57,100 bases of DNA. Origin: a virus. Taxonomy: Duplodnaviria; Caudoviricetes. The position numbers and the translations under genes were made by a program. The notes under the pieces are model-generated. The model worked only from the letters and a program-made list of their open reading frames with translations, ran no database searches and was not told the origin of the DNA. The number at the start of each line of letters is the position of its first letter. The first letter of the stretch is position 1. The DNA lies in the IMG/VR virus record IMGVR_UViG_3300017700_000562, positions 1-57,100 of that record, one strand, 5' to 3'. This document shows, one piece after another, positions 1 through 57,100 of this stretch.

Positions 1-123
1 CGCAAGCAGCCGTCGTTCACCGAGGATTACCTCAAGACCGTAGCGCCCGGTCGCGACATCCTCGACATTCGCCACCTGTCGCACATGCGGGACAGTTTCA
101 TCGCGCCGCTGTTGGAAGAACAC
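1..123. repeat. Terminal direct repeat, left copy (circular-assembly overlap)
   Basis: cgcaagcagccgtcg...gttggaagaacac is identical to 56978-57100, and it lies inside the polymerase ORF. Confidence 0.97.
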
Positions 124-1011
124 ATCTGGCGCGACCGGGTACATGCCAATTTTAACCAGATGCGCGGAGACGAATATGGAACTATCACGGGCCGCCTATC
201 GTGCGATAGCCCCAACCTACAACAGGCTCATAAGCGCGACGCTGAGCGTGGCCGTATGCTGCGTGGCCTATTTATCCCCGACGAAGGAAAAATCTTCGCC
301 GAAGTTGACTATTCCCAGTGCGAACCGCGCCTGCTCGCTTACTATTCAAGGTGCAAAGTTCTGCTCGACGGATACCGGGCAACTCCGTCTGTCGACGCTC
401 ATACCGCCGTTGGTAAAGCTATCAGCTTCGGTCGATGGGACGAATCTGATCCTGATGCCAAGGGGTCGGTGAACAAGCCGCTCCGAGAAAGCGGCAAGCG
501 CGTCAATCAGACCCTGATCACCGGGGGCGGCAAGGGTGTGATCGTGGCCCGCTACGGTGTGCCGCTGGCCGAAGTCGACAAGATATGGCGCGACTATTTC
601 AAGGCGATGCCTGAAATCAAGGAACTGCAGGATAAGGCCAGCAAGCGCATGCGCAAGCGCGGCTACGTGGTGTCGCTGCTGGGGCGCAGGTCGAGATTGA
701 ATGACGACCGGTTCTACGTCGCCGTTAACCGCTTGCTCCAGTGCGGCAACGCCGACGTGATCAAGTTGAAGATGGTCGAGATCGACGATTATATGGAATC
801 GCAGGGACGTCCTCCCATCGACGTGCTGCTCAACATCCACGACGCTCTGCTATTTCAATTTGACGAGAGCGCCCGCGTGCACTATAATAGGTGCCTTGAG
901 ATCATGTGCGCGTTCGGCCCCGACGACGAGATCACGCTCGACATTCCCATCGAAGTCGACGACGGCGAGGGCGAGACGTGGGCAGAAGCGACATTCGGGC
1001 CGGAGAAATAG
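1..1011 (+). CDS. polA: Family A DNA polymerase, C-terminal polymerase domain (continues from 55868 across the junction); candidate Z-adapted polymerase
   Basis: Motifs TITGRLSCDSPNLQQ, motif A AEVDYSQCEPRLLA, motif B RESGKRVNQTLITG, NRLLQCGNADVIK and motif C NIHDALL. The frame is continuous with the exonuclease half at the window end. Confidence 0.95.
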   Translation, partial: RKQPSFTEDYLKTVAPGRDILDIRHLSHMRDSFIAPLLEEHIWRDRVHANFNQMRGDEYGTITGRLSCDSPNLQQAHKRDAERGRMLRGLFIPDEGKIFAEVDYSQCEPRLLAYYSRCKVLLDGYRATPSVDAHTAVGKAISFGRWDESDPDAKGSVNKPLRESGKRVNQTLITGGGKGVIVARYGVPLAEVDKIWRDYFKAMPEIKELQDKASKRMRKRGYVVSLLGRRSRLNDDRFYVAVNRLLQCGNADVIKLKMVEIDDYMESQGRPPIDVLLNIHDALLFQFDESARVHYNRCLEIMCAFGPDDEITLDIPIEVDDGEGETWAEATFGPEK

Positions 1012-1012
1012 G

Positions 1013-1750
1013 ATGCCGTTTGGTTATTTTGGGGCTAAACACGGGTTGGCCAAGTTCTACCCCGCACCCACCCACAACACCATAATTGAACCATTTGCGG
1101 GGTCCGCCGCGTATTCGTGTAAATGGGCCACACCCGATACTCATGTAATACTTAGGGACATCAATCCTGACGTAATAGGCTTGTGGTATCGACTACAAGG
1201 AATGTCGGTGGATGAATTGATGGCTATACCAATGCCCGTTAAGGGCGAACGGACCGTTGAACCCCTTATAGCTGCTGCCAGCGGTGAACAGGGGATGGCC
1301 GTCCTAGCGGGAAAATCTAGGCAAATCACCGATCGCATGGCCAAATCGTGGCCTAGGCTCAGGCAACGGATCGCGACTGCATTGCCTATGATAAAAAATT
1401 GGGACGTTCAGTTGGGGGACTATTCGTCTATTAAAAACACAAAGGCCACGTGGTTTGTCGACCCCCCATACACGTCCAAGGCAGGAAGTAGGTCCGACGA
1501 TGGAAGCCGCACAAAAGTGACAGAGGGCACTAAGGGGGCGGGTGGGGATAGATATAGTGAGCATGGGGTAGGTTTTAACTCGCACGACGATTTGGCCAAA
1601 TGGTGCCTGTCTCGTAAAGGGCAGTTGATAGTTTGTGAACAAATGCCCGCTGATTGGTTGCCATTCCAACCGTTCAGAACTCAACGCAATGGAGTGGGTG
1701 CGGGAATCCAGTCTACTCGCACCGAAGCTATGTACGCGAGGATTAAATGA
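1013..1750 (+). CDS. Dam-like (D12 class) amino-DNA methyltransferase
   Basis: N-terminal GYFGAK, SAM-binding motif I IIEPFAGSAA and catalytic motif IV FVDPPY. The probable start is ATG 1013, directly after the pol stop. Visibly more AT-rich than its flanks. Confidence 0.85.
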   Translation: MPFGYFGAKHGLAKFYPAPTHNTIIEPFAGSAAYSCKWATPDTHVILRDINPDVIGLWYRLQGMSVDELMAIPMPVKGERTVEPLIAAASGEQGMAVLAGKSRQITDRMAKSWPRLRQRIATALPMIKNWDVQLGDYSSIKNTKATWFVDPPYTSKAGSRSDDGSRTKVTEGTKGAGGDRYSEHGVGFNSHDDLAKWCLSRKGQLIVCEQMPADWLPFQPFRTQRNGVGAGIQSTRTEAMYARIK

Positions 1751-1932: not shown

Positions 1933-2120
1933 TGAAGACCTTCGGTATTCTGGTTCGTTTCGCCGATCTCCCTAACGATATCGGCATGGACGACGTCAAG
2001 CGTATGGCGTCGGACATCATCATGTCGATTCCCGACGAGACGCCGTCGCCGGAACATGGCAAGTGCTTCGAGATCGGCGTCGGAAACGTGCGGCGGGTAC
2101 CGAAGGATAAGCTACAATGA
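1929..2120 (+). CDS. Small hypothetical protein
   Basis: Coupled overlaps at both ends and GC3-rich codons. Confidence 0.6.
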   Translation: MMKTFGILVRFADLPNDIGMDDVKRMASDIIMSIPDETPSPEHGKCFEIGVGNVRRVPKDKLQ

Positions 2121-2569
2121 ACGAACTCCAGATGCAAAAGCTGGTCATCGATTCCGTCATCGAAGGGGGCGGCCGGGCTATGAAGCTTCAAAACGAGTTT
2201 GTCCGAGGCGTTTCGGACCTGCTCGTCAAGATGCCGGGCGGGGTACCGTTCTTCCTTGAGGCCAAGCGCACCGACCTTGGCAAGCGCACCCTGGGTCTAT
2301 TACACCACGAATTCAAGTGGGACGTTTCACAACTCCAGAAGAATTTCCTTCGCGACTGGCACAAGGCCGGCATGAAATGCGGCGTCGTGTCGTTCGTGCA
2401 GTTGACGGGGGGCGACATTCGATCACTCCGCATGGCCATATACCCATATCTTGACTGCGTCGAGCAGGGGTGGACCGGGTCTCTGGCCGACCACGTCGAA
2501 CTGGGTGACCACGTCCAGCGAAGCATCACAATACGAACCCTTCTCAACGCATTCAAACAGGTGCCCTGA
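2117..2569 (+). CDS. VRR-NUC / PD-(D/E)xK nuclease (Holliday-junction resolvase-like)
   Basis: GVSDLLV...FFLEAKR...SQLQKNFLRDWHKAG pattern in a replication module. Confidence 0.75.
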   Translation: MNELQMQKLVIDSVIEGGGRAMKLQNEFVRGVSDLLVKMPGGVPFFLEAKRTDLGKRTLGLLHHEFKWDVSQLQKNFLRDWHKAGMKCGVVSFVQLTGGDIRSLRMAIYPYLDCVEQGWTGSLADHVELGDHVQRSITIRTLLNAFKQVP

Positions 2570-3075
2570 TGGCTAATCGACTACTTACCGCAGACCAGAT
2601 CGTGTCGTTGTTCACTCGCTCGATGGTGGGGGAGGCTTTCACCACCCACCCCGCCAGCGACGAGACCCATATCAAGATAGTTCACATGGGAACGGGCCTG
2701 TCGGAAGATTTCACGACTCAGGACCGTATTCTGTCGGATGGGGATTTCATCAAGAACCGCATCGTGCCGTTCGAAGCGCGGGTACGGTCCAGTTACAAGG
2801 CGTCGGAGCGTTACGCCCCATGTTCTTTGCTTGGCGAGCGCGGCAAGACCCATGGGGACTACGACCAGATGGCTGCCGTCATTCAGTCTATCAAGTTTGC
2901 TATGCAATCCGGCAACTGGGAGGACCTTACGGCCACCCAGAAGGAAAGTTTAGACTTGACAGCCACCAAGATCGGGCGTATAGTCTGCGGCGATCCTAAT
3001 CACCGGGATCATTGGGACGATATCATCGGTTACGCAACACTGGCGCGGGATCGAATTCCCGTAAAGAAGGGCTAG
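2569..3075 (+). CDS. DUF6378-like protein (nucleotide-metabolism associated, all-alpha)
   Basis: C-terminal ERGKTHGDY...KIGRIVCGDPNHRDHWDDIIGYATL, immediately upstream of purZ. Confidence 0.7.
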   Translation: MANRLLTADQIVSLFTRSMVGEAFTTHPASDETHIKIVHMGTGLSEDFTTQDRILSDGDFIKNRIVPFEARVRSSYKASERYAPCSLLGERGKTHGDYDQMAAVIQSIKFAMQSGNWEDLTATQKESLDLTATKIGRIVCGDPNHRDHWDDIIGYATLARDRIPVKKG

Positions 3076-3079
3076 AACT

Positions 3080-4210
3080 ATGCTTGACGGTTTCATTCAG
3101 CGCGGCAAGATGTCGTTCATTCTCGGCGGTCAATTCGGATCGGAGGGCAAGGGCGCTGCAAGTGCCTGGGCCGTCACTGAACTGGTCAAGACCGGACGGG
3201 CGTTCGATATCATCACCACGAACGCGGGTGTCCAATCTGGACATACCAGCATCCACGAGGGCAAGAAGCGCGTGCTGTTTCATCTGCCGACTGCGGCGAT
3301 GTTTTGCGACGCCCCTGTACATCTGAACGCCGGATCGATCATCGACCCGGACGTATTGTTTCGTGAATTCGACGAGAACCCGGATTTCCGCTACACTCAC
3401 CGCCTGACCATTGATCCCTTTGCCGCCGTCGTCACTCAAGAGTGCCGCGACGCCGAAATGGCGAACGACAGCGCGCAGACCAAGATCGCGTCGACCCGCA
3501 AGGGTGTCGGTCAGGCGCTGGCGCGCAAGGTGCTGCGGTCTGGCATGGTCGCCAAGGACCACCCGCGACTGCAGCCTTTCATTTTTCAATTCAGTATGAA
3601 CGATGATCTCTCCAAGGGCGCTTCTATTCTCGCCGAAGTCCCGCAGGGCGTGTCGCTGTCGCTCAACGGCGGTTTCTATCCTCATACCACGAGCCGCGAC
3701 TGCACCGTGGCGCAGGCAGCCTCCGACGCCGGCATCCACCCGCATTTCGTCGGCCAGACGATGCTGGTGCTGCGCACGTTCCCGATCAGGGTGGGGAACA
3801 TCAATCGTACCGCAGAAGAGATTCGGGAGACAATGACCGCATATGAAAGCAAAGACCCTGAACAGTATAAGGGGTATTCCGGCGGCGTCTACCCTGACCA
3901 GTATGAGATATCGTTCGACGATCTCGGCGTCGAGGCCGAAATCACCACCGTCACCAAGCGTGTGCGCCGGATTTTCACCTGGTCCGACCAGCAGGTGGTC
4001 GACGCCATTCGCGTCTCGCGACCCAGCGTGATTTTCCTGTCGTTCTGCGATTATTTGCGCGGTGATGGGCAGGCAGGACAACCTTATATCACGGACGAGT
4101 TGGTACGCAAGGTCCGTGGTTTGTGTCGCGCCGAAGGTCTCGGTAACGTCGAGGTTCTGACCGCCTTCGGCCCGACCACGGCGGACGTGCGGGTCAACGA
4201 GAGCCGCTGA
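3080..4210 (+). CDS. purZ: PurZ-family N6-succino-2-amino-deoxyadenylate synthase (adenylosuccinate synthetase paralog)
   Basis: GGQFGSEGKG has Ser in place of the PurA catalytic Asp of GDEGKG. Also SGHT, STRKGVG, QG.SL...FYPHTTSRD, RTFPIRV and TTVTKRVRR. Followed by MazG-like and HD-domain genes. Confidence 0.92.
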   Translation: MLDGFIQRGKMSFILGGQFGSEGKGAASAWAVTELVKTGRAFDIITTNAGVQSGHTSIHEGKKRVLFHLPTAAMFCDAPVHLNAGSIIDPDVLFREFDENPDFRYTHRLTIDPFAAVVTQECRDAEMANDSAQTKIASTRKGVGQALARKVLRSGMVAKDHPRLQPFIFQFSMNDDLSKGASILAEVPQGVSLSLNGGFYPHTTSRDCTVAQAASDAGIHPHFVGQTMLVLRTFPIRVGNINRTAEEIRETMTAYESKDPEQYKGYSGGVYPDQYEISFDDLGVEAEITTVTKRVRRIFTWSDQQVVDAIRVSRPSVIFLSFCDYLRGDGQAGQPYITDELVRKVRGLCRAEGLGNVEVLTAFGPTTADVRVNESR

Positions 4211-4688: not shown

Positions 4689-5303
4689 ATGCCATACCAG
4701 AAGCTTTTCCCGCCCGAACTTCGCACCGCGTCAATAGTCCCGCGCTGGTCCGTAGTGTGGACCCTGAACAAGGATACCGTGGCGAACCATTCATATTTCG
4801 TCACGTTCTACGCGCGGCAGATCGCCAAGCTGATCGGGTGGAAGGGCTCGTACGAGGACCTGATGTACTACGCGCTGGTGCATGATCTCGACGAGACGGT
4901 GACGGGGGACATCGTGTCGCCGGTCAAGGCGGCAATCGTAGATAAACAAGCCTCCGATGTTTACGTAGACAATCACATGAGCCGGACCATGCCGGATGTC
5001 TTGGCAAATACTGCTCGGATAATGGACCCGTTTAATGAAGACCAATCAGGGAAATTCGACGAGCCCTCCGATATCAAGCTTATCGTCAAGGCAGCCGATC
5101 GCCTCGACGCCCTGTTGTTCCTGATCACCGAGGAACGGTTGGGAAATTCGATCATTATGAAGCGCACCCCGGACGCCCAATCGTTGCTGCGTCAGGCCTG
5201 GATGGATTTGCCCGGTATCGACGAAGCTGGTAAAAAGTTTACGTACGAGGTTATGCTTGAAGAAATTTCACACCACAGGTCCGGGGGTGGTTTCGGTGTC
5301 TGA
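4689..5303 (+). CDS. datZ: HD-domain dATP triphosphohydrolase, DatZ/YfbR-like
   Basis: VPRW...TVANHSY...ALVHDLDETVTGDIVSPVK...VKAADRLDA, within the purZ cluster. Confidence 0.85.
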   Translation: MPYQKLFPPELRTASIVPRWSVVWTLNKDTVANHSYFVTFYARQIAKLIGWKGSYEDLMYYALVHDLDETVTGDIVSPVKAAIVDKQASDVYVDNHMSRTMPDVLANTARIMDPFNEDQSGKFDEPSDIKLIVKAADRLDALLFLITEERLGNSIIMKRTPDAQSLLRQAWMDLPGIDEAGKKFTYEVMLEEISHHRSGGGFGV

Positions 5304-5502
5304 AACATTGACCTTGTACGTACACTGTGCTTGCAACGACGGCTTGGCCCCCAGTGAAGCCGAGGTGGATGCCATGTTGGATAGTCTTAATTATAGGGCT
5401 GCAGCCAGACTACTTGGCAAACACGTGGCACAACGAGAATGGTTCGGTACTTTGCCGTTTTCAGACAGTCTTGGCTTTGCGATATATCGGGATTTTGAAT
5501 GA
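5296..5502 (+). CDS. Small hypothetical protein
   Basis: Fills the gap between datZ and the helicase with overlaps. The GTG start is inferred. Confidence 0.45.
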   Translation: MSETLTLYVHCACNDGLAPSEAEVDAMLDSLNYRAAARLLGKHVAQREWFGTLPFSDSLGFAIYRDFE

Positions 5503-6908
5503 CCACCGATTGGCACCTGAACCACGCCCGTTTCGGCACTAAGCCCTGGGCTGTACAAGTCGAGGCTATGCGTCGTTCTGCCCCACACAGAAAATACGCG
5601 TTATTCGCCGAGCAGGGACTTGGAAAAACTGCAATGGCTCAGAACGCCTTTATCGACGACGATGACACCGACGTCCATCTGGTGCTCTGCCCGAATTCGT
5701 TCAAGAACGACTGGGTGCTGGCCCCTGAGGAATGGGGCGTAGGTTGGATGCCTGTCGGTATGTGGCCGCGCAACCCCATCCCGACCAACGAAGAATATAT
5801 CCAGTACGCCATCAACTTCGAGTCCGCGCGCAAGAGCAAGCTGAACGACCTGCTCCGGTTATGCGAGAAGCGACGTGTCCGGCTGACTATCGACGAATCC
5901 GCGATCCTCGCCAACCCCGGCACCGAATCCACCAAGGGTATGATCGAGATCGCCAAGCGCGCCGACCGGGTCTGGCTGCTGAACGGCACGCCCCTGATCA
6001 AGAACCCTGTCGACTATTTCGGCCAGTTGCGCGCCATCGGTCGCCTAAACGGCTGGAATGCTACTAATTTCAAGAACCGGTTCGCCGTAACTGGGGGTTG
6101 GAAAGGAAAACAACTCTTAAACGAGATCAAAAACGAGACCGAGTTAGCTACCATCCTCGACGAGTGTTCGTTTCGTGCCCTCAAGGCCGACTGGCGCAAG
6201 GACCTGCCCCCCAAGGTACGGACGCCCATTCATCTTGAAATGTCAGCCAAGCAGCGGGTCCATTACGATGAAATGATGGACGAGTTCTATACCATGGTTG
6301 ACGGCGAGGAAATCACCGCGCAACTGGTGCTGACGCAGATGGACAAGCTGCGCCAGATATCATCGTGCGTCCTGATGAAGGACGGCAATGAATATTTCTT
6401 CGAGGAAGACAAGAACAACCCTAAGCTACAGGCCCTGTACGACATCGTGTCGTCCTGTCCCGGCAAGATCATCGTGGTCTACAACTACAAGGCGTCGGGC
6501 ACGCTGTTACGGGAGTCGCTGACCAAGAAGGGTCTCAAGCCCGCCTATATCAAGGGTGGGATGAAGCCCGAGGAACTGTCGCGCCAGAAGGACATGTTCA
6601 ATAACGACCCCGACTGCCGGGCCATCGTGTGTCAGGAACTGGCCTCGTGCCGGGGACATACGCTGATCGGGCAGACCGGAAAAGACAGGTGCGCCACTAT
6701 GTATTTCTACGAAAATTCCTTCTCGTACTACCAGCGCGCCCAGATGGAGGACCGCAATCATCGCGGCGAGCAGGACGAGACTTGCAACATATATGACCCG
6801 GTCGTCAGCCCGATGGATGCTCTTACAGTTGAAATTCTGACCAATAAGAAAGACATGGCGGACGGCCTCGATCAGGTGGTGGCCAAAATACGGGAATTGA
6901 GGGGTTGA
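5499..6908 (+). CDS. SNF2-like SF2 helicase
   Basis: AEQGLGKT Walker A, TIDESA Walker B, LLNGTP, KLRQISS and QMEDRNHRGEQ motif VI. Confidence 0.9.
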   Translation: MTTDWHLNHARFGTKPWAVQVEAMRRSAPHRKYALFAEQGLGKTAMAQNAFIDDDDTDVHLVLCPNSFKNDWVLAPEEWGVGWMPVGMWPRNPIPTNEEYIQYAINFESARKSKLNDLLRLCEKRRVRLTIDESAILANPGTESTKGMIEIAKRADRVWLLNGTPLIKNPVDYFGQLRAIGRLNGWNATNFKNRFAVTGGWKGKQLLNEIKNETELATILDECSFRALKADWRKDLPPKVRTPIHLEMSAKQRVHYDEMMDEFYTMVDGEEITAQLVLTQMDKLRQISSCVLMKDGNEYFFEEDKNNPKLQALYDIVSSCPGKIIVVYNYKASGTLLRESLTKKGLKPAYIKGGMKPEELSRQKDMFNNDPDCRAIVCQELASCRGHTLIGQTGKDRCATMYFYENSFSYYQRAQMEDRNHRGEQDETCNIYDPVVSPMDALTVEILTNKKDMADGLDQVVAKIRELRG

Positions 6909-11448: not shown

Positions 11449-11913
11449 ATGCCCCGAGACTCAGAAAACCTTAAACGTTGGCGGGATGCTCGGTACCCCT
11501 TAGTGAAGGACGAGTTAAATCGCCAACGTAGTCAAAATCGCAAGGAAAGACGAGCTAATATGTCTTCGGAGGAAAAATCCAAGATATTAGAGACCAAACG
11601 TAACAATTACCGTCATGGGGACAAAACCTATCACGCGGCTCGTACCAAACGATACCGGGTTAAGCTTAAGATGGACGTAATCAAGGCTTATGGTGGGTGC
11701 TGCTCATGCTGTGAAGAGGACCACCCAGATTTCCTGACTGTCGACCATGTGAAAAACGATGGCAACGTCCACCGCCGCACTCTTAAAGGTACTCAAAATT
11801 TGTACCGCATGTTGCGGGACGCCGGCTACCCTAAAGATGACTACACCGTTCTTTGTTTCAATTGCAACATTGCACGCAGCCTGTTCGGCACGTGTCCACA
11901 CCAGAGGACCTGA
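11449..11913 (+). CDS. HNH-type (Cys-rich) homing endonuclease
   Basis: YGGCCSCC...LTVDHVKNDG...LCFNCN...CPH, in an AT-rich insert. Confidence 0.75.
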   Translation: MPRDSENLKRWRDARYPLVKDELNRQRSQNRKERRANMSSEEKSKILETKRNNYRHGDKTYHAARTKRYRVKLKMDVIKAYGGCCSCCEEDHPDFLTVDHVKNDGNVHRRTLKGTQNLYRMLRDAGYPKDDYTVLCFNCNIARSLFGTCPHQRT

Positions 11914-42652: not shown

Positions 42653-42855
42653 CTGATACCCAGGACCCTGACTTCGCTGTCGAGCCCGACCCTCGCACTG
42701 GTCCTTTCCTCGCCGAGTACAAGATGGTCGAACACCAGATCATCGAAGTCCTGATGACCAAGATCAACGAGCAAGCCAAGATGGGCTGGCGACTGGTCCA
42801 GGTCATCTACAACCCCGATCGCAAGATTGCATTCATGGAAAGGCTGACTCGCTGA
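42649..42855 (+). CDS. Small DUF4177-like protein
   Basis: EYKMV...KINEQAKMGWRLVQV. Confidence 0.55.
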   Translation: MTDTQDPDFAVEPDPRTGPFLAEYKMVEHQIIEVLMTKINEQAKMGWRLVQVIYNPDRKIAFMERLTR

Positions 42856-43337
42856 TGCCCATGCCCCCCATAATCAGCAAAAAAGCAGCTAGGGCTCAGG
42901 GCTTAAAGCGATATTATACTGGTGTTCCGTGTAAGCACGGTCACACCGCAGATCGTAGGGTATCCGATAGTGGGTGCCTTGGGTGTAAAAATCAACGGGA
43001 GCGCGACAGGCGAAAAAAGTCCGAACATCAGTCCAAGGAATTACAACGTAATCAGTTATACAGAACCCAGTTACGACACGATGTCTTATCCAATTATGGG
43101 GGCAAGTGTGCCTGTCCAGGGTGCGATATAGCTGAACCCCGGTTCCTTGGCATCGACCATATCGAGGGGGGAGGTCGAAAACATCGTAAAGAAATAGGTA
43201 GCGGCCCCGGACTTTATGTTTGGTTAAGGAATAACGACTACCCCAAAGACAAATTTCGTCTTCTGTGCCACAACTGTAACCACTCGTACGGCCATTATGG
43301 CTTCTGCGCACATGGGGTCTCCAATGGCAAAGTCTAG
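42855..43337 (+). CDS. HNH-type homing endonuclease
   Basis: GLKRYYTGVPCKHGH Zn-finger-like N-terminus, then YGGKCAC...IDHIEGGG...LCHNCN. Confidence 0.75.
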   Translation: MPMPPIISKKAARAQGLKRYYTGVPCKHGHTADRRVSDSGCLGCKNQRERDRRKKSEHQSKELQRNQLYRTQLRHDVLSNYGGKCACPGCDIAEPRFLGIDHIEGGGRKHRKEIGSGPGLYVWLRNNDYPKDKFRLLCHNCNHSYGHYGFCAHGVSNGKV

Positions 43338-47164: not shown

Positions 47165-47560
47165 ATGCTTCTGGTTCCTGACCCCTTCGACCCTCGTTTC
47201 CTCGATTTTGGGGACCAGCACGAGTATAAGATTTATGGGGACGACCATGCCCTTACCTTCGCCCGAGTTGATCAAATTGATTATCAATGGGCAGTTCGGT
47301 GGCGTTGGAACGTTACTTTCGACAAGCACGGAAAGAAGCCCTACTTTCGCATAACGGTGTCTGAGACCGGCCGACCTGACTATACCGTCTACCTTCACGT
47401 GGAAATTCAGAAGCGAAAAGGCGAACCCCAGCCACCTCACCATACGATATCGGACCATCTTAACGGAGATAGTTCCGACTGCCGAAGATTCAATCTTGGT
47501 TGGGCTACTCCGTCGATGAATCGCCGCAACATCTTTGGACAGGGATACATGAAGCTATGA
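47165..47560 (+). CDS. HNH endonuclease (HNH_3-like)
   Basis: YLHVEI...SDHLNGDSSDCRRFNLGWATPSMNRRN. Confidence 0.8.
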   Translation: MLLVPDPFDPRFLDFGDQHEYKIYGDDHALTFARVDQIDYQWAVRWRWNVTFDKHGKKPYFRITVSETGRPDYTVYLHVEIQKRKGEPQPPHHTISDHLNGDSSDCRRFNLGWATPSMNRRNIFGQGYMKL

Positions 47561-49947: not shown

Positions 49948-50706
49948 ATGGCCGCGATCCATCATCAGACTTTGAAGAAAGCCAAGTCCTTCGGTATCGT
50001 CCTCACCGTCGAGGACAACGACGTCGTCGCCACCAAGGACGGCGTGCAACTGGCCAGCGGGCTGCAGGGCAACAAGGTCCTCGAAGCGGCCATTGCGAAG
50101 CTGACTCCGGAAGTCAAGGGCGCCGTCACCGGCCGCACCACCAGTACCACTTCCCCAGTTACTGAGATCGCCAAGGACGGCGTCAAGGTCAAGCCCACCA
50201 AGGTTTCCAAGGTCGTCGAGCTTTCCCCGGCCGAACTGGCTGCCAAGGAAGCTGCTGAGGCCGAGGGCTGGAAGGCCTTGCGCGCTGGCGGCTTTGTCCG
50301 CAAGACCCCCGGCGAAGAGACCGACTACTCCGAGGCCAAGACGTGGGCCGAACTCTGCGAAGAGCAGGATATCGAAGTCGAGCAGGAAGAGGCCGAAGAA
50401 GAGGAAGCCCCCGCTTCCGTGATAAAGGACAAATATAAAAAGATTTACGCGCAGACCGCCGTGAAAGGTACCTGCGGCGACGACCTCGCAAAGCAATTGC
50501 GCGAATATCTGATGGTCGACACCGAGGACGGCCCGCGCATCGACAAGAAGAAGCTACGCAAATGGGCCGAGGCCAACGGGGTCTGGGTCGCGGCCTACGG
50601 GTCGATGAAGGTCGGCATGATTGCCATGAATACTCGAAACCGTCTGCGCGGTAATATGCGCAAGGCCGAAAAAGCCGGTGAAGTGTTTGAGGTCCAATGG
50701 CCGTAA
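49948..50706 (+). CDS. Highly expressed-looking early protein with NG-W-Y-G-M-NRL family domain
   Basis: Strong codon bias; TCGDDLA...ANGVWVAAYGSMKVGMIAMNTRNRLRG. Confidence 0.8.
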   Translation: MAAIHHQTLKKAKSFGIVLTVEDNDVVATKDGVQLASGLQGNKVLEAAIAKLTPEVKGAVTGRTTSTTSPVTEIAKDGVKVKPTKVSKVVELSPAELAAKEAAEAEGWKALRAGGFVRKTPGEETDYSEAKTWAELCEEQDIEVEQEEAEEEEAPASVIKDKYKKIYAQTAVKGTCGDDLAKQLREYLMVDTEDGPRIDKKKLRKWAEANGVWVAAYGSMKVGMIAMNTRNRLRGNMRKAEKAGEVFEVQWP

Positions 50707-51746
50707 AGTCCAAAAATAAACCTACGTTTATTAGTAGGCCCGTGGCGGAAGCTGCGGGCCTTAAACGCTTTTACACTGGACAGAAGTGTCCCCAAGGGCA
50801 CGTAGCTGAAAGGTACGTAAAAGACAGTAAATGTGTGGTTTGTAAAGGGATAAGACATTCAGCATTTGTAGCTAGGACAGGATACAATTGGCATAAACTA
50901 AATCCCGAACGTAGACGCGCTAATGATAATACCCGGTATGCCAAAGACCCCGATAGAATAAAAAACAAAAACAAGTCGTACCATGAAAAACACCCAGAAA
51001 TCCGCAGAGCAATAAGGCGTCGTAGGCGGGCCAGAATTTTGGCCGCTGAGGGGGACCACACCCCCAAGGACATTAAGGATTTGTTTGATAAACAGAAAGG
51101 CTTATGTGCTGGCCCTCATTGTCGAAAAGATATCAGTACCAAATACCAGATAGACCACATGGTTCCTATAACCAGAGGGGGTTCTAACTGGCCCAGTAAT
51201 TTACAACTTCTGTGTTTCCACTGTAATAATTCTAAGCACACTAAGACTAACGAGGAATGGTTAGAGTTTATTAAACTACCAAGATTGACACGTTGGGACG
51301 GGCGTGCTGTAAAGATTAATGAGGGGCCTAAATCTGGAGAGTCTATCATGGTTGCTAAAAAGGCCAAAAAGGAATCCGCTTCGGTGGTTGATACCGAAAA
51401 GTTCAACTACGAGACGACCAAAATTCGCGGGGTCGACGGCAAGATCCGCCATTCGCGCGGCAATCAGGACGCCATTGCCAAGGCTCTTCTTGTGTTCATC
51501 GCCGGAGGTGGGGATATCAAGAAGGTAATCAAGGCTAATGGTCTTTCGGACCGCATGAAGGGTCGCGAAGGAATGAACGCCGGCTTGTTTCGGATGACAG
51601 CGTCGGTGATGCTCCGCAAGCTGGTCCGCGACGGCACCCCGGTCGAGATCGGCGACATCACGGTCAAGAAGCTGGACCAGGTTGTCAAGGTGCCGGCCGA
51701 AGTCGAGAAGCCGGCGCGGAAGGCTCGGGTCGCGAAAGCAGCTTAG
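50697..51746 (+). CDS. HNH endonuclease reading in frame into a downstream early gene
   Basis: GLKRFYTGQKCPQGH, QKGLCAGPHC, IDHMVPITRGGSNWPSNLQLLCFHCNNSK. There is no stop before MVAKKAKK. Confidence 0.75.
   Translation: MAVKSKNKPTFISRPVAEAAGLKRFYTGQKCPQGHVAERYVKDSKCVVCKGIRHSAFVARTGYNWHKLNPERRRANDNTRYAKDPDRIKNKNKSYHEKHPEIRRAIRRRRRARILAAEGDHTPKDIKDLFDKQKGLCAGPHCRKDISTKYQIDHMVPITRGGSNWPSNLQLLCFHCNNSKHTKTNEEWLEFIKLPRLTRWDGRAVKINEGPKSGESIMVAKKAKKESASVVDTEKFNYETTKIRGVDGKIRHSRGNQDAIAKALLVFIAGGGDIKKVIKANGLSDRMKGREGMNAGLFRMTASVMLRKLVRDGTPVEIGDITVKKLDQVVKVPAEVEKPARKARVAKAA
51348..51746 (+). CDS. Early basic protein, third NG-G-RM family member (independent internal start)
   Basis: TTGACA at 51285, GGAGAG RBS, and a codon-usage switch at ATG 51348. 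Confidence 0.7.
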   Translation: MVAKKAKKESASVVDTEKFNYETTKIRGVDGKIRHSRGNQDAIAKALLVFIAGGGDIKKVIKANGLSDRMKGREGMNAGLFRMTASVMLRKLVRDGTPVEIGDITVKKLDQVVKVPAEVEKPARKARVAKAA

Positions 51747-55731: not shown

Positions 55732-56016
55732 ATGCCTAATATCAACAACAAGACCCTTCGCGACGCAACCTGGAAACAGGTTTACCGCTATACTGGGGCC
55801 AAGGTGTCGTTCATCACCTACGCCTGCGAGGAAATTCCCGGACTCACCATCACGAAGGACATGCTCGGTGCCAAAGTCGTCAAAACCACGTACACCGTCG
55901 CCGGCAAAGCCACGGACAGTCCGACGCAAGCCGTCCGCGACTACAACGCCCACCAGAGAGCCCAATCTGGCCGACAGGAAGTACCGGGAAGTCCTCGCGC
56001 GGCTGGACTCAGATGA
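55732..56016 (+). CDS. Hypothetical protein overlapping the polymerase start
   Basis: Good codon usage; overlaps the pol frame. Confidence 0.5.
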   Translation: MPNINNKTLRDATWKQVYRYTGAKVSFITYACEEIPGLTITKDMLGAKVVKTTYTVAGKATDSPTQAVRDYNAHQRAQSGRQEVPGSPRAAGLR

Positions 56017-57100
56017 ACCGCTCATTTCGCTGGACACCGAGACTTCTGGCCTCGATTGGCGCGTGCACCATATTGTCGGCTACGTATTTGCTTTCTCCGC
56101 GAGCCCCGACGATAGTTATTACATTCCTGTTAGGCATGCTGGTCGGAACAATGTTGGGGGTCATGCTGGTCCATCGACTGCCACTGGCTGGGACGGCGAA
56201 ACCCTTGCGCATGGGGAAGCGGAACTCTTACGGCTGTCTATGCGGAAGGGACTACGATACGTAGGCCACAATCTGTCGTTCGATCTCAAGTTCTTGTATC
56301 GGGTCTGCGGCACGGCGGCGTTCGATCCCCAATACGAAGACACCATGATCAACGAACCGTTGATTGATGAACATGCCGGCAAATTCAGCCTTGAAGCCTG
56401 CTGCCTGCGGCGCGGGGTTCAGGCCAAAAAGAGCCATATGATGTACGACCACATCCACAAGCTGTTCCCCGAGGTGCCGGCCGCGGCGTCGTCGATGGGA
56501 CACTTCTGGCGACTAGACGCTGAGGACTCGGTGGCGATTGAATACGCCGAGGGCGACGGCACGTCGACTTGGCAACTGCGCGACGCGCAGATGGAAGAAA
56601 TGCTGCGGCAAGATGCAGAACATTACAAAGCAGACATCTTGGATTGGCTGGGTACTGCACCTAGGGTATGGGATGGGGACGAAGAGCGCGACGCGATAGG
56701 GCGGGAGTGGTTTGATCTTCCTGAGAACCACAAACTTCCCACCCTGCGCCGCGTCCACGGCATCGAGTCCCGTCTGATCCGCGTCCTAGCGCGCATGACC
56801 TGTAAGGGTCTGCGCACCGACCGCAAGGCCGTCCAGAAGCTTTACGACGGCCTCACCAAAAAGATCAACGGTTTGATGGAGAAGCTGCCCCCCGGCGCGT
56901 CGGTGCGCTCGCCGAACGACGTCAAGGCCTGGTTGATGGTTAACGGCATTACGAGCGGTTGGCCCCTGACCCCCAAGCGCAAGCAGCCGTCGTTCACCGA
57001 GGATTACCTCAAGACCGTAGCGCCCGGTCGCGACATCCTCGACATTCGCCACCTGTCGCACATGCGGGACAGTTTCATCGCGCCGCTGTTGGAAGAACAC
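55868..57100 (+). CDS. polA: Family A DNA polymerase, N-terminal 3-5 exonuclease and thumb (continues into 1-1011; about 706 aa in total)
   Basis: My translation gives ExoI LDTETSGL, ExoII GHNLSFDL, DTMI and ExoIII EYAEGD. The frame is open to the window end. The GTG start at 55868 is inferred. Confidence 0.9.
   Translation, partial: MPKSSKPRTPSPAKPRTVRRKPSATTTPTREPNLADRKYREVLARLDSDEPLISLDTETSGLDWRVHHIVGYVFAFSASPDDSYYIPVRHAGRNNVGGHAGPSTATGWDGETLAHGEAELLRLSMRKGLRYVGHNLSFDLKFLYRVCGTAAFDPQYEDTMINEPLIDEHAGKFSLEACCLRRGVQAKKSHMMYDHIHKLFPEVPAAASSMGHFWRLDAEDSVAIEYAEGDGTSTWQLRDAQMEEMLRQDAEHYKADILDWLGTAPRVWDGDEERDAIGREWFDLPENHKLPTLRRVHGIESRLIRVLARMTCKGLRTDRKAVQKLYDGLTKKINGLMEKLPPGASVRSPNDVKAWLMVNGITSGWPLTPKRKQPSFTEDYLKTVAPGRDILDIRHLSHMRDSFIAPLLEEH
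56978..57100. repeat. Terminal direct repeat, right copy
   Basis: Identical to 1-123. Confidence 0.97.

Follow-up and report, generated by a model that had tools for sequence, protein, structure and literature searches.

A large uncultured clade of phage PurZ enzymes with a PurA-type aspartate in the phosphate-donor pocket

The present analysis concerns the purZ gene of IMG/VR virus record IMGVR_UViG_3300017700_000562 (Duplodnaviria; Caudoviricetes), which was studied over its whole length of 57,100 bp (the window), carries direct terminal repeats (123 bp, exact), and has an estimated completeness of 100%. The gene encodes a genuine crown-group PurZ (succino-2-amino-deoxyadenylate synthase) of a large uncultured clade. 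Judged from the aligned residues, the pocket for the base of its phosphate donor is a hybrid, because F322 and Y325 are aromatic residues of the PurZ type while D324 is of the PurA type. We give somewhat better than an even chance to the reading that this crown PurZ descended from ATP-type enzymes, that its donor pocket later returned to a GTP-like form, and that GTP is accepted alone or beside ATP, with the chemistry on dGMP and aspartate unchanged. PurZ catalyzes the committed step in the only known pathway by which DNA has one of its Watson-Crick bases rewritten, and it is in use for making DNA with 2-aminoadenine (Z) in Escherichia coli.

RESULTS

Identity and fold of the window PurZ

The open reading frame (ORF) begins with ATG and encodes 376 amino acids; family matches and a structural model rule out a chance ORF. 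The protein is an adenylosuccinate-synthetase homologue (Pfam PF00709; E value, 5.1e-30) whose top family is the NCBIfam PurZ model NF038379 (201 bits; E value, 2.4e-59), with archaeal PurA NF003295 behind it (163 bits), and it also matches PHROG 1211 (E value, 4.1e-55). The PADLOC defense models gave no match to it. An AlphaFold2 model built from 143 aligned sequences reached a mean predicted local distance difference test (pLDDT) score of 94.0 and a predicted template modeling (pTM) score of 0.92. The top Foldseek match of this model was phiVC8 PurZ (6FKO/6FM1), with a template modeling score of 0.88 on the target, a root mean square deviation of 2.1, and 31% identity; the first five matches were all phiVC8 or S-2L PurZ, followed in the ranking by P. 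horikoshii PurA, and PurZ0 took the ninth place. By homology, the enzyme would join dGMP and aspartate to a precursor of 2-aminoadenine nucleotides, and it is in this sense that we infer the catalyzed reaction, the donor preference, and the presence of Z in the phage DNA.

A hybrid donor pocket

Statements on the S-2L and phiVC8 enzymes are taken from excerpts of PMC8342488 and of a bioRxiv preprint. The donor base of S-2L PurZ is stacked on F306 and P336, and its adenine 6-amino group is bound by N305, Q308 (N297 in phiVC8), and the backbone of G335; the Asn/Gln amide is assigned the exclusion of 2-amino purines, and N49 and A50 line the base pocket of dGMP (PMC8342488). F295 and Y298 of phiVC8 are credited with stabilizing the adenine ring (bioRxiv preprint).

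An alignment by sequence places S321 of the window protein at the position of S-2L N305 and D324 at that of Q308/N297. The adenine-recognizing Asn plus Asn/Gln (phiVC8 N294/N297; S-2L N305/Q308) is thus missing, and the pocket has the PurA-like guanine form (T-x-x-D), the window S-F-C-D being aligned, by sequence alone, with T-M-L-D of PurZ0. The column of residue 324 holds Asp in 6/6 Asp-type PurA outgroups, in 9/9 bacterial and archaeal rows that have Ser at the place of the catalytic PurA Asp (Ser-type), and in all three PurZ0 rows. The first-pass annotation had taken the retained Asp for a GTP-type feature, which agrees with these data, since D324 and S321 match PurA and PurZ0, unlike the canonical N...N/Q. 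Its further suggestion of an altered cosubstrate is a reasonable one, because D324 and a non-Asn residue 321 replace the adenine-binding N...N/Q; an altered amino acid substrate, which it also entertained, is unsupported because the aspartate-binding loop TTVT-x-R-x-RR is intact. The exchange Asp333Asn is said, in the title of a 1994 paper by Kang et al., to move the adenylosuccinate synthetase of E. coli from GTP to XTP. On the alignment, we take Asp333 to be the Asp of the TKLD motif.

The residues expected to handle acceptor and aspartate are retained, i.e., S21, H55, Q189, R237-V238, and the TTVT loop. S21 of the P-loop (GSEGKG) is the PurZ hallmark and stands where PurA has Asp13, the catalytic His is kept in Q52-S-G-H55-T56 with Q replacing N, Q189 in EVPQG makes the contact to the O6 side of the purine, and R237-V238 corresponds to the 2'-deoxy selector R240-V241 of S-2L. 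In the donor pocket, F322 and Y325 are the counterparts of phiVC8 F295 and Y298. G16 and E22 of the P-loop form an ancestral-like pair, most PurZ proteins having D16 and T22. An insertion of residues 241 to 264 is absent from phiVC8, OH, PurZ0, and PurA in the alignment and appears in the model as a short helix followed by a low-confidence loop (pLDDT of <50 at residues 254 to 258).

Relatives and distribution of the residue states

The window PurZ is matched by 205 of 50,697 cultured-phage records, all at <60% identity, and the best of them is Ochrobactrum phage vB_OspP_OH with 38.9% over 97% of the protein. Metagenomes yielded 1,911 matching proteins (E value of ≤1e-10), the best 120 of which are 50 to 75% identical to the window PurZ, many of them on contigs of 50 to 70 kb; of the clusters formed at the 50% level, 303 give a match at an E value of ≤1e-30. 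The proposal of a distinct clade is therewith supported, and this clade is without a cultured member. The closest 120 relatives carry E22 in 107, Q52 in 117, P188 in all, and D324 in 108 cases; the other 12 combine N324 with S, T, or A at residue 321.

A residue survey of 135 cluster representatives plus references separated those motifs that distinguish the window PurZ from those that do not. Every motif named in the first-pass annotation is present in the ORF, with GSEGKG (starting at residue 20), QSGHT (52), EVPQG (186), GYSGGVYPDQYEI (265), TTVTKRVRR (289), and FLSFCDYL (319). Its PurZ signatures GSTGKG and N-F-x-N/Q are borne out by phiVC8, S-2L, and OH, while TKLPRR is limited to S-2L and near kin such as PSA28. 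The PurZ norm is TK[KR]VRR (phiVC8, TKKVRR; OH, TKRVRR), and the "retained Arg" that had been read as a GTP signature therefore discriminates nothing. EVPQG, listed as an oddity, is the consensus of metagenomic PurZ (V187 in 71/135 and P188 in 66/135 representatives), and EGAQG, as in phiVC8 and S-2L, is the minority state. Q52 occurs in 15/135 representatives with a minimum of three changes on the tree, and S at the second place of this motif is common in ordinary PurZ, e.g., in the GPNSGHT of OH and many more. One Asp-type short PurA (locus L088 of archaeal genome G031; 381 bits to NF003295) likewise begins its NAGHT motif with Q, and the exchange is thus tolerated in a presumably ordinary PurA.

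Residue 22 is E in 28 and T in 99 of the 135 representatives and covaries perfectly with residue 16, as G16+E22 was found in 28 and D16+T22 in 99 of them and no G/T or D/E pair exists. D16 goes with T, S, C, or G at residue 22 in 105/135, and the acidic residue seems to shift its place. The two codons (nucleotides 3125 to 3127 and 3143 to 3145) changed at least six times on the tree, always jointly and without a link to the state of the donor pocket.

Nested position within PurZ

Trees were calculated with FastTree (195 rows) and with IQ-TREE under LG+C20 PMSF (101 rows by 347 columns), with archaeal genomes and a Salmonella purA as the source of outgroups; for IQ-TREE, rows were subsampled (101, then 79 of 195). 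Both programs place the window clade in the same nested position. In the tree of 101 rows, Ser-type proteins split from Asp-type PurA at 100/99, and PurZ0 (100/100) and PurZ (100/99) are distinct clades. The earliest branches inside PurZ are Bacillus phage BpsS-140 and the metagenomic row P0210. A cultured clade of phiVC8, ZP6, BCSR129, S-2L, JeffCo, K21lambda1, and PSA28 (100/98) forms the sister group of a 63-row clade with phage OH (99/100), which lies inside PurZ beyond nodes of 100/99 and 100/95, and the window clade (100/98) lies inside this OH clade beyond nodes of 100/92 and 100/86.

Because the four ancestral-like states could draw the clade toward the base, 37 motif columns (residues 14 to 26, 47 to 56, 185 to 190, and 319 to 326) were removed in a second set of 79 rows. 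PurZ was recovered at 99/95, and the window clade remained nested with OH in a 51-row clade (98/99). In the approximately unbiased (AU) test on these data, a position outside the other PurZ was worse by 57.9 log-likelihood units and was rejected (p-AU, 0.0083).

Single-site reconstruction on the motif-free tree gave Asp324 a probability of 1.00 at the Ser-type root, 0.01 at the crown PurZ node, 0.01 at the node just outside the window clade, and 0.96 at the node of the window clade itself. The reconstructed order along the lineage was a non-Asn residue 321, then G16 with E22 and Q52, and finally D324. Successive sister lineages display such intermediate combinations: P0131 has D16, T22, N321, and N324; P0128 has G16, E22, N321, and N324; and P0125, P0127, P0132, P0136, and P0170 have E22, S/T321, and N324. 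Of the basal rows, P0210 and BpsS140 share G16 and E22, and P0210 also has T321 and D324. The window clade thus nests inside PurZ, as the first-pass annotation had allowed for in its refuting case, yet its immediate outgroups are mostly without D324.

Ser-type PurA homologues proved to be widespread in bacterial chromosomes, with GGQ[FY]GSEGKGK, a length of ~345 amino acids, and the donor-pocket Asp kept. A pattern scan yielded at least 562 confirmed stretches (loci L012, L015, L016, L018 to L053, and others; L016:5995-7065 and L046:5431-7119 were examined) in records titled Bradyrhizobium, Xanthomonas, Trinickia, or Hydrogenophaga and in many metagenome-assembled genomes. In the trees they branch, in unresolved order, at the base of the group that unites PurZ and PurZ0. 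The gene of Bradyrhizobium follows a fusion of RNase_H_2 and an AAA_18 kinase near a dCTP-deaminase-like gene; that of Trinickia is itself fused to an AAA_18 kinase domain and adjoins DUF7002, patatin, and UvrD-like genes. PADLOC reported weak "dCTPase" matches for these loci that concern the kinase part only. PurZ may have come from such cellular homologues, or these may make up a nucleotide-based defense system.

Recurrent joint change of residues 321 and 324

At residue 324, 104 of the 135 representatives have N, 22 have D, 7 have Q, and 1 has E. The pair 321/324 reads N/N in 96 representatives, T, S, or G with D in 22, N/Q in 7, and T or S with N in 8; N/D does not occur, i.e., N321 is kept in 0/22 Asp-bearing representatives. 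On the first tree, with 83 PurZ rows, D324 requires at least 16 and a non-Asn residue 321 at least 14 changes, and on the motif-free tree, the minima are 14 and 13. In independent pairs differing at residue 324, residue 321 shifts in the same way in 9 to 10 of 11 cases and never in the opposite way (P of about 0.004) on the first tree, and it follows in 6.8 of 8 cases (P = 0.016) on the motif-free one. The [S/T/G]-F-x-D form therefore recurs across PurZ, in 22/135 clusters or about one in six, which suggests that the phosphate donor has been switched, or its choice relaxed, repeatedly.

No comparable link was found for the other conspicuous positions. E22 shows no tie to D324 on either tree, which is why GSEGKG, proposed as a GTP signature in the first-pass annotation, was rejected as such; it simply tracks G16. 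A connection of Q52 with the donor state was considered and likewise discarded, as independent pairs gave no link to D324; Q52 arose earlier and is also found with N324.

Genomic context

The features of the window are compiled in Table 1. In the context of purZ, the DatZ-like and MazG-like genes and a family A polymerase, all assigned by homology, are those of a Z-cluster. The polymerase gene spans the record ends. The 153-amino-acid MazG-like protein is 29% identical to gp33 of OH, which is annotated as nucleoside triphosphate pyrophosphohydrolase (E value, 1e-11); its 17-sequence profile matches PDB 2P06 (E value, 8.9e-10) and, weakly, MazG-related and PRA-PH chains, and E68, E71, E87, and D90 are invariant. 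It had no Pfam match, Pfam MazG was unmatched in the whole genome, and BLASTP and hhalign detected no similarity to S-2L MazZ; DUF550 was also unmatched in the genome, but the control genomes were silent as well. The Cys-rich C-terminal 30 residues (C-x4-C ... C-x4-C) of this protein are absent in 16/16 aligned relatives and may be a small zinc-binding add-on. The HD protein matches phrog_7076, "dATP triphosphohydrolase" (E value, 1.9e-16), and DatZ of PDB 6ZPA (E value, 6e-4); with S-2L DatZ it shares 34% over 68 amino acids, with W-x-V in place of W20-x-I22. No dUTPase (PF00692) or NDT (PF05014) was found in the complete window genome, and the control genomes were matched.

With the clade alignment as the query, 43 related IMG/VR loci were found, where a single-protein query had found none. 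MazZ-like and DatZ-like genes follow purZ in 13 of the 17 closest loci, two have the DatZ-like gene only, and two are cut off. A search for accessory genes tracking the Asp or Asn state was fruitless, as Asp-type (8) and Asn-type (8) loci did not differ. Loci L129 to L139 (34 to 38% identity to the window PurZ) contain PolA, PurZ, an OH-type pyrophosphohydrolase, and an SNF2 helicase, with no detectable DatZ-like gene in between, irrespective of an S...D or N...N donor pocket.

The D12-class methyltransferase is situated after the polymerase and ahead of the Z-cluster in a phage whose DNA is predicted to be adenine-free; its target may be host DNA or Z, and 0/43 related IMG/VR loci match it at an E value of ≤1e-4. 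Elsewhere on the record are genes for terminase, portal, major head, head-closure, and tail proteins, besides those for a primase and a helicase. The replication module is interspersed with four HNH or endonuclease VII-like genes, which are probably homing endonucleases.

Table 1. Coordinates of genes and protein motifs in the window
Feature	Position	Strand	Basis or remark
Family A DNA polymerase, C-terminal part (candidate DpoZ)	1..1011	+	PF00476, E 1.8e-47
D12-class N6-adenine DNA methyltransferase	1013-1750	+	PF02086, E 1.1e-9
Small nuclease-like protein	2117..2569	+	Conserved upstream in relatives
DUF6378-like protein	2569..3075	+	Conserved immediately upstream of purZ in relatives
purZ, succino-2-amino-deoxyadenylate synthase homologue, 376 aa	3080..4210	+	Pfam, NCBIfam, PHROG, model, trees
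P-loop G16-G-Q-F-G-S21-E22-G-K-G25	3125..3154	+	Alignment, representative counts
Q52-S-G-H55-T56	3233..3247	+	N-A/S-G-H-T in PurA and PurZ
E186-V-P-Q189-G	3635..3649	+	Counterpart of PurA EGAQG
Variable insertion, residues 241-264	3800..3871	+	Between RVGN and GYSGG; alignment and model
Aspartate-binding loop T289-T-V-T-K-R-V-R-R297	3944..3970	+	Conserved; cf. S-2L T273-T276 loop (PMC8342488, excerpts)
NTP-base pocket S321-F322-C-D324-Y325	4040..4054	+	Alignment to phiVC8, S-2L, PurA
G364-P365	4169..4174	+	Conserved; counterpart of S-2L G335-P336 (backbone contact, stacking on donor base)
MazG-superfamily NTP pyrophosphohydrolase candidate (MazZ-like), 153 aa	4212..4673	+	OH gp33, PDB 2P06
HD-domain YfbR-like phosphohydrolase, DatZ-like (candidate dATPase)	4689..5303	+	PF12917, E 6.5e-17
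SNF2-family helicase	5499..6908	+	Syntenic with OH helicase
HNH or endonuclease VII-like genes (4), replication module	11449-11910, 42855-43334, 47165-47557, 50697-51743		Probably homing endonucleases
Family A DNA polymerase, N-terminal part	55868..57100	+	Gene spans record ends

DISCUSSION

Origin and possible meaning of the donor pocket

The reading that we favor would have the lineage start from an ATP-type PurZ, with four positions returning to the state of PurA, PurZ0, and basal PurZ. Residue 321 would have changed from N to S/T in a first step, followed by the coupled P-loop exchange of D16/T22 to G16/E22 along with N52 to Q, and by N324 to D as the last. The pair 321/324 lines the pocket of the phosphate-donor base, where in S-2L and phiVC8 Asn plus Asn/Gln bind the 6-amino group of adenine and clash with a 2-amino group; in PurA, guanine is recognized by an Asp at the place of residue 324. 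From these pocket states and the guanine-recognizing Asp of PurA, we deduce that the window PurZ accepts GTP, by itself or beside ATP, and we regard this as about evenly balanced.

Several points weigh against this reading. The donor preference is concluded from two residues and an analogy, and ATP use may persist because adenine N6 could still donate a hydrogen bond to the Asp carboxylate, as it does to the Asn/Gln oxygens; the adenine-ring-stabilizing aromatics F322 and Y325 are retained. N324 in 12 of the 120 closest relatives means that members of the clade can do without Asp there, and as accessory genes are alike whatever the state of residue 324, the genomes hold no other sign of a changed donor. 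The protein stays below the curated cutoff of 300 bits of NF038379. Regarding the placement, four ancestral-like states in one clade are also what an early-branching lineage would be expected to show, and with all columns included, forcing the 19-row E22 lineage outside the other PurZ costs 45.7 log-likelihood units and is not rejected (p-AU, 0.076). The groups for the AU tests were chosen with the tree already known, and the ultrafast bootstraps were unsettled (correlations of 0.974 for the 101 rows and 0.986 for the motif-free set).

The same facts feed the alternative of an ordinary ATP/dATP-using PurZ, in which 321/324 would be a tolerant pair drifting between N...N and [S/T/G]...D without consequence for the donor, as Asp would still hydrogen bond the 6-amino group of adenine and most of the binding would come from the aromatic sandwich. 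The conservation of F322, Y325, G364, and P365 is in line with this, the more so as the excerpts of the bioRxiv preprint credit the corresponding F295/Y298 with stabilizing the adenine ring; so are the frequent flips of the pair (a minimum of 14 to 16 changes), which extend into the window clade, and the same MazZ-like and DatZ-like genes in relatives of both types. A freely drifting pair should nevertheless produce N321 with D324, and its absence and the joint change of both residues point to selection on a joint function; moreover, Asp is found in every sampled GTP-type relative (PurA and PurZ0), and the excerpts of PMC8342488 assign the exclusion of 2-amino purines to the very Asn/Gln amide that is lost. 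We thus see unchanged donor use as possible, though doubtful. A change of the acceptor nucleotide or of the amino acid instead of the donor, e.g., through Q52-S53 in the acceptor base pocket, is hardly probable at all: the two residues do occupy the place of S-2L N49/A50 and nearly all clade members have Q52, but S at the second place is commonplace in PurZ, the archaeal L088 has Q as well, Q52 predates D324 and coexists with N324, and S21, Q189, R237-V238, the whole aspartate loop, and the Z-cluster context are preserved.

According to the first-pass annotation, this enzyme appears to stand between the GTP-using PurZ0 and the ATP-using PurZ and is possibly an evolutionary link. The window clade would then be an early branch that never lost G16, E22, S/T321, and D324, and its nesting would be an artifact. 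Such a history could account for the co-occurrence of all four states, for their partial presence in the basal P0210 and BpsS140, for the AU result on all columns, and for phmmer scores of the window PurZ that are on a par for P. horikoshii PurA (132 bits) and phiVC8 PurZ (127 bits). It conflicts with both maximum-likelihood trees, which nest the clade with strong support in agreement with FastTree, with the motif-free AU test, with the stepwise assembly of the ancestral-like states in successive sister lineages (P0131, P0128, and the P0125 group), and with a fold ranking led by phiVC8 PurZ. The gene content also speaks against it, as the window genome has DatZ-like and MazG-like genes and matches neither dUTPase nor NDT. 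A missing link is therefore decidedly unlikely, and a later reversal of the donor pocket is preferred.

Beyond the window clade, the recurrence of the pattern leads to a more tentative proposal, whose chances we place somewhat short of even: phages may have flipped the donor choice many times through a two-residue switch, N-F-x-N <-> [S/T/G]-F-x-D, instead of moving one way from GTP to ATP, and the window clade would be a crown PurZ that has resumed the use of GTP, or takes both purine triphosphates, with DatZ and MazG-like proteins kept. If this is true, Z synthesis would be uncoupled from dATP consumption, and the view of Z-genome biosynthesis as a "progressive evolution" would have to be revised. 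The guanine-type Asp is present again in a large natural clade and in about one-sixth of the PurZ clusters, within otherwise standard Z-clusters. Use of GTP by the Asp-type enzymes would make donor choice plastic and the drain of dATP by PurZ dispensable; continued use of ATP would call for a revision of the accepted structural interpretation of the pocket. Engineers would also gain another class of PurZ, free of competition for ATP/dATP.

Comparison with known systems

PurZ0 is reported to use GTP in the work of Tong et al. in 2023, and this agrees with the summary of the bioRxiv preprint mentioned above. According to the excerpts of PMC12884076 and of this preprint, GTP-using PurZ0 and ATP-using PurZ form two monophyletic groups in a progression from archaeal PurA. 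A shift to ATP/dATP as the donor is said to have suited PurZ to life with a Z-genome by also draining dATP (bioRxiv preprint), and Ser at the place of PurA Asp13 is present in 100% of 147 phage PurZ-group sequences (PMC12884076). One sentence of PMC12884076 gives the donors of PurZ0 and PurZ as "ATP and GTP, respectively," opposite to PMC8342488 and the preprint, and is probably an inversion, i.e., a slip in the paper. No description of an Asp-type crown PurZ was found in the literature searched, which covered PMC12884076 and the preprint without their supplements and did not extend to Tong et al. 2023.

The PurZ0 set, represented by Gordonia phage Archimedes (PDB 7VF6) and Arthrobacter phages Wayne and DreamTeam, resembles the window PurZ in a P-loop Ser followed by Glu (GSEAKG) and in a donor-pocket Asp with a preceding Thr (L-T-M-L-D-Q), but it is only 28 to 29% identical, lacks the F...Y aromatic pair, and forms a clade of its own to which the window protein does not belong. 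PurZ0 genomes contain DutZ (dUTPase-like) and usually DmtZ (NDT-like), as stated in the excerpts of PMC12884076, while neither family is present in the window genome. The short PurA of P. horikoshii (PDB 5K7X) is similar in length and fold, and the archaeal short PurA rows L087 and L088 share G-G-x-x-G-x-E-G-K-G and the T-x-x-D donor motif; unlike the window PurZ, these archaeal enzymes have the catalytic Asp instead of Ser and are without the F...Y pair and a TTVTK loop of the PurZ type.

S-2L PurZ (PDB 7ODX), the source of the donor-pocket reading (N305, F306, Q308, G335, and P336), shares the fold and differs in N...Q of the pocket and in TKLPRR. phiVC8 PurZ belongs to another crown subclade and has in common with the window enzyme the P-loop Ser, the His of an NxGHT-type motif, the Gln at position 189, RVG, TTVTK-x-VRR, the F...Y pair, and the GP motif. 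Its D/L-Q-F-G-S-T-G-K-G, N-A-G-H-T, EGAQG, and L-N-F-C-N-Y are represented in the window protein by G-G-Q-F-G-S-E-G-K-G, Q-S-G-H-T, EVPQG, and L-S-F-C-D-Y, in addition to the insertion of 24 residues after RVGN. The closest cultured counterpart is found in Ochrobactrum phage vB_OspP_OH, whose genome of 41 kb, compared with the 57 kb of the window phage, has the same gene order of PolA, small genes, PurZ, NTP pyrophosphohydrolase, HD nucleotidase/hydrolase, and helicase. OH PurZ shares the crown subclade, TKRVRR, and E-V-x-Q-G with the window PurZ and differs from it in the canonical states D16/T22, N52, and N321/N324.

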